Source: an uncultured Candidatus Rokubacteria bacterium
GTDB lineage: Bacteria; Methylomirabilota; Methylomirabilia; Rokubacteriales; CSP1-6
Assembly (NCBI GenBank): GCA_963747235.1
Contig: CAVVEU010000024.1
Span: 94,349 to 158,348 of the forward strand
Direction: 5' to 3'
DNA length: 64,000 nucleotides
The translations under genes and the position numbers were made by a program. Below the pieces are notes generated by a model. That model was not told the DNA's origin. It saw nothing but the letters and a program-made list of their open reading frames with translations, and did no database searches. Below, in pieces: positions 23,231 to 24,034 of the stretch (position 1 is the stretch's first letter; each line of letters opens with the position of its first letter).

Positions 23231-24034
23231 ATGCTCTGCAAGCGGCTGATCCCGTGCCTCGACGTCAAGGACGGCCGCGTGGTCAAGGGCGTCCGCTTCG
23301 TCGAGCTGCGCGACGCGGGCGATCCGGTGGCCGCCGCGCTGGCCTACGACGCCCAGGGCGCCGACGAGCTGGTGTTCCTCGACATCACCGCCTCGCACGA
23401 GGGGCGCGCCACCATGCTCGACGTGGTGCGGCGCACCGCCGAGGGGATCTACATGCCGCTCACGGTGGGCGGCGGGATCCGGTCGCTCGAGGACATCCGC
23501 ACGCTCCTGCGCGCCGGCGCCGACAAGGTGTCGCTCAATACCGCGGCGCTGGAGCGGCCGGGCCTGGTCTCGGAAGCCGCGCGCGCCTTCGGGAGCCAGT
23601 GCATCGTGGTCGCGATCGACGCGATGCAAGGCGCAGCCGACGGCGAGCCGAGCGAATAAGAAGTGAAGCCCGCGGACCCTCCTGGCAGGTCTATACCCAC
23701 GGCGGCCGCCGCCCGGCCGGGCGCGATGCGGTGGAGTGGGCGCGCGAGGTGGAGGGGCTGGGCGCGGGCGAGATCCTGCTCACCAGCATGGACCGCGACG
23801 GCACCGGCGCGGGCTACGACATCGCGCTGACCCGCGCGGTGGCCGAGGCGGTGTCGGTGCCGGTCATCGCCTCGGGCGGCGTCGGGAGCCTCGAGCACCT
23901 CCGCGAGGGGCTGGTCGAGGGCCGCGCGGACGCCGCGCTCGTGGCGACGCTCTTCCACTTCGGCCAGCACACGGTGCCGGAGGCCAAGCGCTATCTGGCA
24001 CGCCCGCGGGGTGCCGGTGAGGCTCGAGCCGTGA
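23231..24034 (+). CDS. hisF: IGP synthase cyclase subunit; interrupted near 23658 (within the inserted element) and near 23999
   Basis: [51 protein letters not shown], then [28 protein letters not shown]. Removing one base near 23999 gives RGVPVRLEP*. Confidence 0.9.
23626..23658 (+). repeat. Dispersed palindromic element, copy 3 (inside hisF)
   Basis: GCAAGGCGCAGCCGACGGCGAGCCGAGCGAATA; 30/33 to copy 5. Confidence 0.82.

Follow-up and report, generated by a model that had tools for sequence, protein, structure and literature searches.

The hisF gene of this uncultured Candidatus Rokubacteria bacterium is interrupted by a stop codon and a change of reading frame, and both lie inside a copy of a short repeat element. 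The locus therefore raises the question whether the element has inactivated a histidine biosynthesis gene, or whether it was inserted in frame in a gene that is broken only in the deposited sequence. We followed this question through the window (the whole stretch of 64,000 nt that was analysed), through the genome to which it belongs (G000) and through 20 congeneric genomes used as comparators, which are designated by G-numbers. The coordinates of the features are collected in Table 1.

Table 1. Features of the hisF locus, copies of the repeat element and window-specific single-base breaks (positions are those of the window unless a contig is given)
Feature	Position	Strand	Basis or remark
hisF N-terminal part, original frame, to the putatively spurious TAA	23231..23659	+	ORF reading; identity to congeners
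Repeat-element insert in the HisF loop, AIDA to W	23624..23682 (~59 nt)	+	nhmmer match 23625-23677, E = 2.7e-7; boundaries set by comparison with insert-free orthologues
Site one base short relative to G013, G020 and JGI contig L239	23655..23662	+	gap lists, alignments
hisF continuation, shifted frame, to EAKRYL	23659..24000	+	tblastn with relatives' HisF changes frame here
hisF 3' end, third frame (..RGVPVRLEP*)	24001..24034	+	second window-specific single-base indel
Element in frame inside glpK	3195..3251	+	same frame as hisF copy
Partial copy, hisH-hisA junction	22433..22468	+	other frame, as HisH tail; core count, nhmmer
Intergenic copy just past rplK	36888..36940	+	nhmmer
Intergenic copy 17 nt upstream of the rpmJ ATG	63528..63593	+	nhmmer
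Copy in CoxM-like FAD subunit	C40:546018	-	in frame as hisF/glpK
Copy in TPP-dependent decarboxylase, interdomain linker	C40:354108	+	in frame as hisF/glpK
Copy in DprA, linker before winged helix	C8:616520	+	frame as hisF/glpK
Copy in Glyoxalase_3 protein	C4:184179	+	frame as hisF/glpK
Single-base break, glpK	3164		window-specific; relatives intact
Single-base break, unnamed gene	17190		window-specific; relatives intact
Single-base break, hisD	20373		window-specific; relatives intact
Single-base break, hisH	22143		window-specific; relatives intact
Single-base break, hisF 3' end	24000		window-specific; relatives intact
Single-base break, hisIE	about 24349-24377		window-specific; relatives intact
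Single-base break, another gene	30598		window-specific; relatives intact

The hisF gene spans positions 23231 to 24034 on the + strand, with its ATG at 23231. Its product belongs to the HisF family: it matches HisF chains of the PDB with E-values of 1e-74 to 1e-107, the catalytic Asp motifs CLDVKDG and SMDRDG are both found, and the top named database relative is a Candidatus Rokuibacteriota MAG. Residues 1-133 are 94-98% identical to congeneric HisF. The original frame is closed by a TAA at 23657-23659, and the HisF sequence resumes from 23659 shifted by one base, so the coincidence of stop, frame break and element noted in the preliminary description was confirmed. The letters at 23654-23663 are GAATAAGAAG, which contain the TAA; adding one base after GAATA (23654-23658) removes the stop and restores the HisF frame, leaving 20 codons between AIDA and W, as had been proposed. 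The insert translation repaired in this way ends (Y)RSEARGPS. An extra base near 24000 puts the 3' end of the gene in a third frame. We also observed a HisF paralogue with 51% identity to hisF at G000 C24:460816-461217, present in several congeners as well, which is probably a HisF-like cyclase of another pathway.

We then asked what the loop looks like in related species. The preliminary description had regarded ~20 codons as unusually long for this loop and had explained them by an in-frame insertion, with alignment of orthologues and structure prediction as checks. The alignment agreed on both points. Short loops are seen in 14 congeneric species, with 5-8 residues between AIDA and W (AIDAK + 4-7 residues + WEVF/WQVY), and these insert-free HisF proteins are 253-258 aa long; the loop of the reconstructed HisF-LUCA (PDB 4evz) is likewise short, at 5-8 codons. 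Five other congeners (G013, G020, G019, G004 and G016) carry element-homologous DNA at the same site, in frame and within an open HisF of 264-281 aa. The insert of G004 shows a partial tandem duplication and that of G016 an internal deletion. Derivation of the short-loop congeners from a long loop that was not a repeat is implausible, as the insert matches 48 other copies at the nucleotide level.

An equally long loop in orthologues that lack the element had been named as the observation that would speak against an insertion. Such loops do exist, with up to 56 residues at the same position, but only in distant lineages of unrelated bacteria and not in the nearest orthologues. They imply that the site is generally permissive for length, which accounts for the tolerance of the insert and does not contradict an insertion, and they are no proof of an ancestral insert. 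At the same hairpin tip we observed unrelated inserts of 24-56 aa in Nitrospirota, Omnitrophota and others (at least seven examples), some of which resemble translated repeats. The HisF hairpin tip may be an insertion hot spot in general.

Intact alleles with the insert were found in large numbers outside the reference genomes. With the G013 allele as query, a search of 5.8 billion proteins gave 5232 strong HisF matches; the insert is intact in 119 of the best 120 of these, with loops of 22, 34, 46, 58 or 62 aa, a series that among these best 120 corresponds to 1-5 units of (A/L)(V/A)AGRGAAEGEP. Altogether, the insert is present as 1-5 tandem 12-residue units in more than 100 HisF proteins from metagenomes, and all their alleles are open. 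Their lengths (P0003-P0120) are 269, 281, 293, 305 and 309 aa, and the unit of 36 nt, or 12 aa, reads …AVAGRGAAEGEP… at the nucleotide level. On contig L240 (1007-1140), 3.7 copies of the 36-nt tandem unit stand in a row with 98% identity. The insert-bearing proteins carry the database names Methylomirabilota or Rokuibacteriota. The housekeeping enzyme HisF thus contains a minisatellite of polymorphic length.

The structural consequence of the insert was assessed with an AlphaFold2 model of the G013 allele built from a 126-sequence alignment; it superseded a first, poor model based on six sequences (pLDDT 58). The model has a mean pLDDT of 91.3 and a pTM of 0.89, and superimposes on solved HisF structures (1thf, 1gpw) with target-normalised TM-scores of 0.92-0.97. 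The insert, residues 134-153, is modelled as coil with pLDDT values of 51-71, and is flanked by the hairpin strands 125-133 (…IVVAIDALR) and 154-158 (WQVYT). In the prediction the barrel is kept and the insert forms the tip of a beta-hairpin, in line with the loop position assigned to it beforehand. HisF is a model (beta-alpha)8 barrel, and this hairpin presumably lies, as in the HisF/HisH structures of T. maritima, at the periphery of the catalytic (C-terminal) face, away from the HisH interface. The model suggests a disordered hairpin tip on a preserved barrel, an arrangement that the enzyme would tolerate, and it points to a peptide that is functionally neutral. The natural HisF series, in which one hairpin tip is extended by 0-5 units of 12 residues, can be tested for effects on folding and allostery.

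The stop codon itself was then compared with the same site in the closest available sequences. The window is one base short at 23657-23662, reading GAATA-AGAAG where G013, G020 and the JGI short-read contig L239 have GAATACGAGAG, GAATGCAACAG and GAATACAAGAA; at the missing base the comparators read GAATAC or GAATGC. The remaining length difference within the insert is 6 nt and in frame. G013 and G020 are ~93% identical to the window across ~36 kb, while L239 is 92.5% identical and encodes an intact HisF of 269 aa that differs from that of the window at two of the N-terminal 142 residues. The sequence SEYRSEA, the same as in the repaired reading, occurs naturally in the metagenomic protein P0039.

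This break is accompanied by others. Conserved genes of the window contain at least seven further window-specific single-base frame breaks within ~38 kb (Table 1), at sites that were scored as intact in G013 and/or G020. The assembly, which consists of 42 contigs, is error-rich here, with a density of frame breaks of ~1 per 4-5 kb, and the breaks look like assembly errors when set against the relatives. As the base is absent relative to all three comparators and at least seven other breaks of this kind are present, the stop and frame change in hisF most probably reflect a one-base loss in assembly and not a biological event. This is the loss that the preliminary description preferred. The missing base lies outside any homopolymer. 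We found no independent assembly that is >99% identical and spans the site: the nearest short-read contig (L237) ends 6 nt short of the insert, a metagenome scan for a near-identical intact HisF allele returned matches only at <=87% amino-acid identity, and an exact look-up of the neighbouring lipoprotein gave no match.

The second possibility raised at the outset, a real insertional inactivation, would mean that the one-base deletion is genuine and that the element-bearing hisF is a pseudogene in this organism, produced by decay of a mutable repeat or by mutagenesis associated with the element. The TAA and the frame shift do stand in the deposited sequence, and the site is a hypervariable repeat (1-5 units, partial deletions in G016) where genuine indels occur. 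Moreover, loss of hisF would not be obviously lethal, since the paralogue is present in the genome. However, the breaks unique to this assembly also affect hisD, hisH, hisIE and glpK in the same region, the other indels within the insert are all multiples of three, and every one of the more than 100 other alleles is open. The hisF branch of the window is also short (0.014 in the locus tree) and without excess divergence, so that decay or relaxed constraint is not indicated. A real deletion is on these grounds improbable.

A consensus artefact of mixed strains, in which populations with different numbers of hisF units were merged and polishing left a chimeric indel, is highly improbable. Soil metagenomes do hold coexisting alleles of different unit number, related strains with 97.7-97.9% identity occur in other samples, and one short-read contig breaks exactly at the insert. 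Most of the other frame breaks of the window, however, lie outside repeats, so that a general indel error rate is sufficient; such an artefact would in any case be a sub-case of assembly error, with the same biology. We give hardly any credence to a functional stop, with HisF split into two half-barrel polypeptides or with programmed frameshifting at the element: separately expressed HisF halves can reportedly assemble in vitro (Höcker et al. 2001), but translation of a C-terminal piece would find neither a start codon nor a ribosome-binding site in the downstream frame at 23620-23700, the break follows beta-4 and not the half-barrel boundary, and it is seen in no relative.

We therefore return to the in-frame insertion with loss of one base in assembly. 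It is very likely that a repeat was inserted in frame at the HisF hairpin tip, that its peptide is tolerated and that the stop is such a loss. According to this proposal, a short interspersed repeat has entered hisF in frame, in the codons for the tip of the beta-hairpin after strand beta-4, and is translated into a peptide rich in Gly, Ala, Glu, Pro and Ser (…RGAAEGEPSEY…). This peptide would form the predicted disordered surface loop and leave the (beta-alpha)8 barrel unaffected, and the TAA and frame change of the window would stem from the one base lost. In nature, intact hisF alleles that carry between one and five of the 36-nt units in tandem are common. For annotation this means that hisF, hisD, hisH, hisIE and glpK of this MAG are not to be labelled as pseudogenes.

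Next, we characterized the repeat family to which the insert belongs. A search of the genome (5.57 Mb, 70.7% GC) with an nhmmer profile detected 49 copies of an interspersed repeat with the core GGCGAGGCGCAGCCGAAGGCGAGCCGAGCGGATAC. In the window, the 25-nt core GGCGCAGCCGNNGGCGAGCCGAGCG occurs 4 times, vs 0.02 expected, which is beyond chance. The repeat pattern gives 8-61 matches in each of the 20 congeneric genomes and is also present in ~nine other genera of the same family (f1), while among the 151 sampled genomes of the phylum those of every other family, order and class had zero matches; a reversed-pattern control gave ~0. Within these genomes, the repeat is restricted to one family of Rokubacteria/Methylomirabilota. 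Rfam 15 at the gathering threshold matched five tRNAs in the window and left the element unmatched. In the confident cases, the neighbouring gene runs in the same direction as the element at 30 of 34 upstream (binomial p ~3e-6) and 31 of 36 downstream positions (p ~6e-6). Many intergenic copies end 1-60 nt upstream of a start codon, with a purine-rich stretch in between.

The core of the element is ~34 nt and the long form ~70 nt, with the long-form consensus GCAGTGGCAGG-GCGAGGCGCAGCC-GAA-GGCGAGCCGAGC-GGATACAAGAAAGAAGCTTCCGGTGGCA. The core can form an imperfect hairpin of 9 bp, which has a GAA loop and also includes a bulged A and a tandem G·A/A·G mismatch. When 30 distinct copies are compared, 97% of the cells are paired. 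Compensatory changes were observed at two pairs (C:G to U:A in 3 copies and to G:C in 1; G:C to C:G in 5), and one pair changed from C:G to U:G in 14 copies, which pairs solely on the given strand. In a shuffle test the covarying cells scored 0/500 and the number of covarying pairs 96/500, where propagation of subfamilies can inflate the counts. The folding energy of the element is no better than that of shuffled sequence on either strand (z = 0.1 to 1.8). The earlier term 'palindromic' therefore holds weakly, in the form of a conserved imperfect hairpin that folds no better than shuffles. A strong palindrome was rejected, as the minimum free energy is no better than that of the shuffles, and what is left is a modest hairpin backed by the comparative data.

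Six copies of the repeat are internal to proteins, namely in hisF, glpK, the CoxM-like FAD subunit, the TPP decarboxylase, DprA and the Glyoxalase_3 protein. All six share one reading frame of the six (…GRGAAEGEPSGY…) and read …GRGAAEGEPS(G/E)Y…; with random frames, the chance of one common frame in six copies is ~1e-4. Pfam domains on both flanks were confirmed for four of the six. The hisF and glpK copies had been described as sharing a frame, and the glpK copy does give the same peptide reading. We infer that selection filters insertions to a single tolerated frame. The glpK insert is intact in G014, G015, G005 and G006 and a remnant in G020, and the species that have it form a different set from those with the hisF insert.

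How the hisF insert came to its present distribution was examined on a tree of the 3.2-kb hisA-hisF-hisIE locus. The species with the insert do not form a clade, and their distribution requires at least 4 changes; a single clade was rejected (AU p = 6e-51). Transfer of the allele is not evident, and the ±200-nt flanks track the species tree, which leaves two histories: a single old gain that was lost several times, or several separate gains. The hisF copies, metagenomic ones included, all share …AGTGA(A)GC…, whereas other long forms have …AGAGAAGC or AAAGAAGC, i.e. AGT in every hisF copy vs AGA or GAG elsewhere in long-form copies. Deletion remnants are seen in hisF of G016 and in glpK of G020. 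On the basis of the shared AGT and these remnants, we tentatively favour one old hisF insertion followed by repeated deletion over repeated insertion at a hot spot.

Other copies differ between close relatives. G013 (L112) has a 43-nt short-form copy, TTTGCGAGCCGCAGCCGAAGGCGAGGCGAACGGATCCGGGAAT, at the position of 15607 in the window; neither the window nor G020 has a copy at this site. The copy at the hisH/hisA junction is absent (~73 nt) from contig L238 of run ERR14374461, which is 97.9% identical; to judge from this pair of sequences, it is a strain-level presence/absence polymorphism. These two polymorphisms and the variation of copy number from 8 to 61, three filled/empty polymorphisms in all, indicate recent gain or loss. 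The hisH/hisA junction copy gives HisH an odd C-terminal tail.

We finally compared the element with known families of short repeats. The Rickettsia palindromic element, RPE, has in-frame copies in unrelated genes with a family peptide (Ogata et al. 2000 Science 290:347, as related in PMC10969869). As far as that account goes, the likeness comprises an interspersed short repeat that is both intergenic and inside unrelated housekeeping genes, and that lies there in frame, with a family-typical peptide, at surface positions that the fold can accommodate, and is kept across species. In the Rokubacteria genome, too, we found a multi-copy family with in-frame copies in unrelated ORFs that have a common peptide. 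Unlike RPE, which measures ~100-150 nt in the same account, the element is ~34-70 nt long; it resides in a free-living high-GC soil phylum, has a weak hairpin, is ~87% co-oriented with the flanking genes and, once inside a gene, grows through tandem duplication of 36 nt in frame. Judged by size and GC content, homology to RPE-1 to RPE-10 is very unlikely, and the element can be considered an analogue of RPE, not a member or a homologue.

With REP/REPIN sequences the element appears to share a short imperfect hairpin, and it shares tens of mostly extragenic copies and lineage specificity. Unlike REPINs, it occurs as single copies or as direct tandem arrays, without inverted doublets or a conserved GTAG head. 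A search of G000 for the Y1 transposase (PF01797) found none, while 12 of 20 congeners have a single copy of a Y1_Tnp gene. No element was detected around the Y1 genes in eight stretches of 3.5-5 kb (nhmmer, E <= 10, within 2.5 kb), and the Y1+HTH gene, which is conserved in another family of the same order as well, also occurs in families that are without the element. Mobilisation of the RAYT/REP type was rejected, as G000 is without Y1 and the Y1 gene of the relatives is not flanked by the element. The Y1_Tnp gene of the relatives (e.g. G013:C14:128779-129102) encodes ~290 aa with a C-terminal HTH. The element also resembles MITEs (ERIC, BOX and Nezha-type; PMC10969869) in being a small non-autonomous repeat with occasional in-frame fusions. 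No terminal inverted repeats were found in the alignment of the element family, and no target-site duplication at the one clean filled/empty site, the G013 copy at window position 15607; as to its spread, TIRs, TSD and RAYT association were thus not seen.

Our literature searches turned up no account of an element of this kind in Rokubacteria. It could tentatively be a previously undescribed small mobile or expanding sequence of Rokubacteria, oriented with transcription, placed upstream of start codons, surviving in one frame inside proteins and serving as a disordered-loop module that grows by in-frame 36-nt duplications and renders housekeeping enzymes such as HisF length-polymorphic within populations, although we regard this full description as doubtful. 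Selfish DNA within protein-coding genes has been known chiefly from Rickettsia; the finding extends it to an abundant uncultured free-living soil phylum, and the present case is unusually clean, with one site, one frame, many species, varying unit number and a well-studied fold.

Lastly, we observed intergenic direct tandem arrays with periods of 41-52 nt at C8:95497-95605, C8:655470-655570 and C17:22726-22812, and in the relatives at G016:C79 and G015:C669. One tandem array and the 5' end of a HAD-hydrolase gene overlap, and the ATGATT at the start recurs with each unit.
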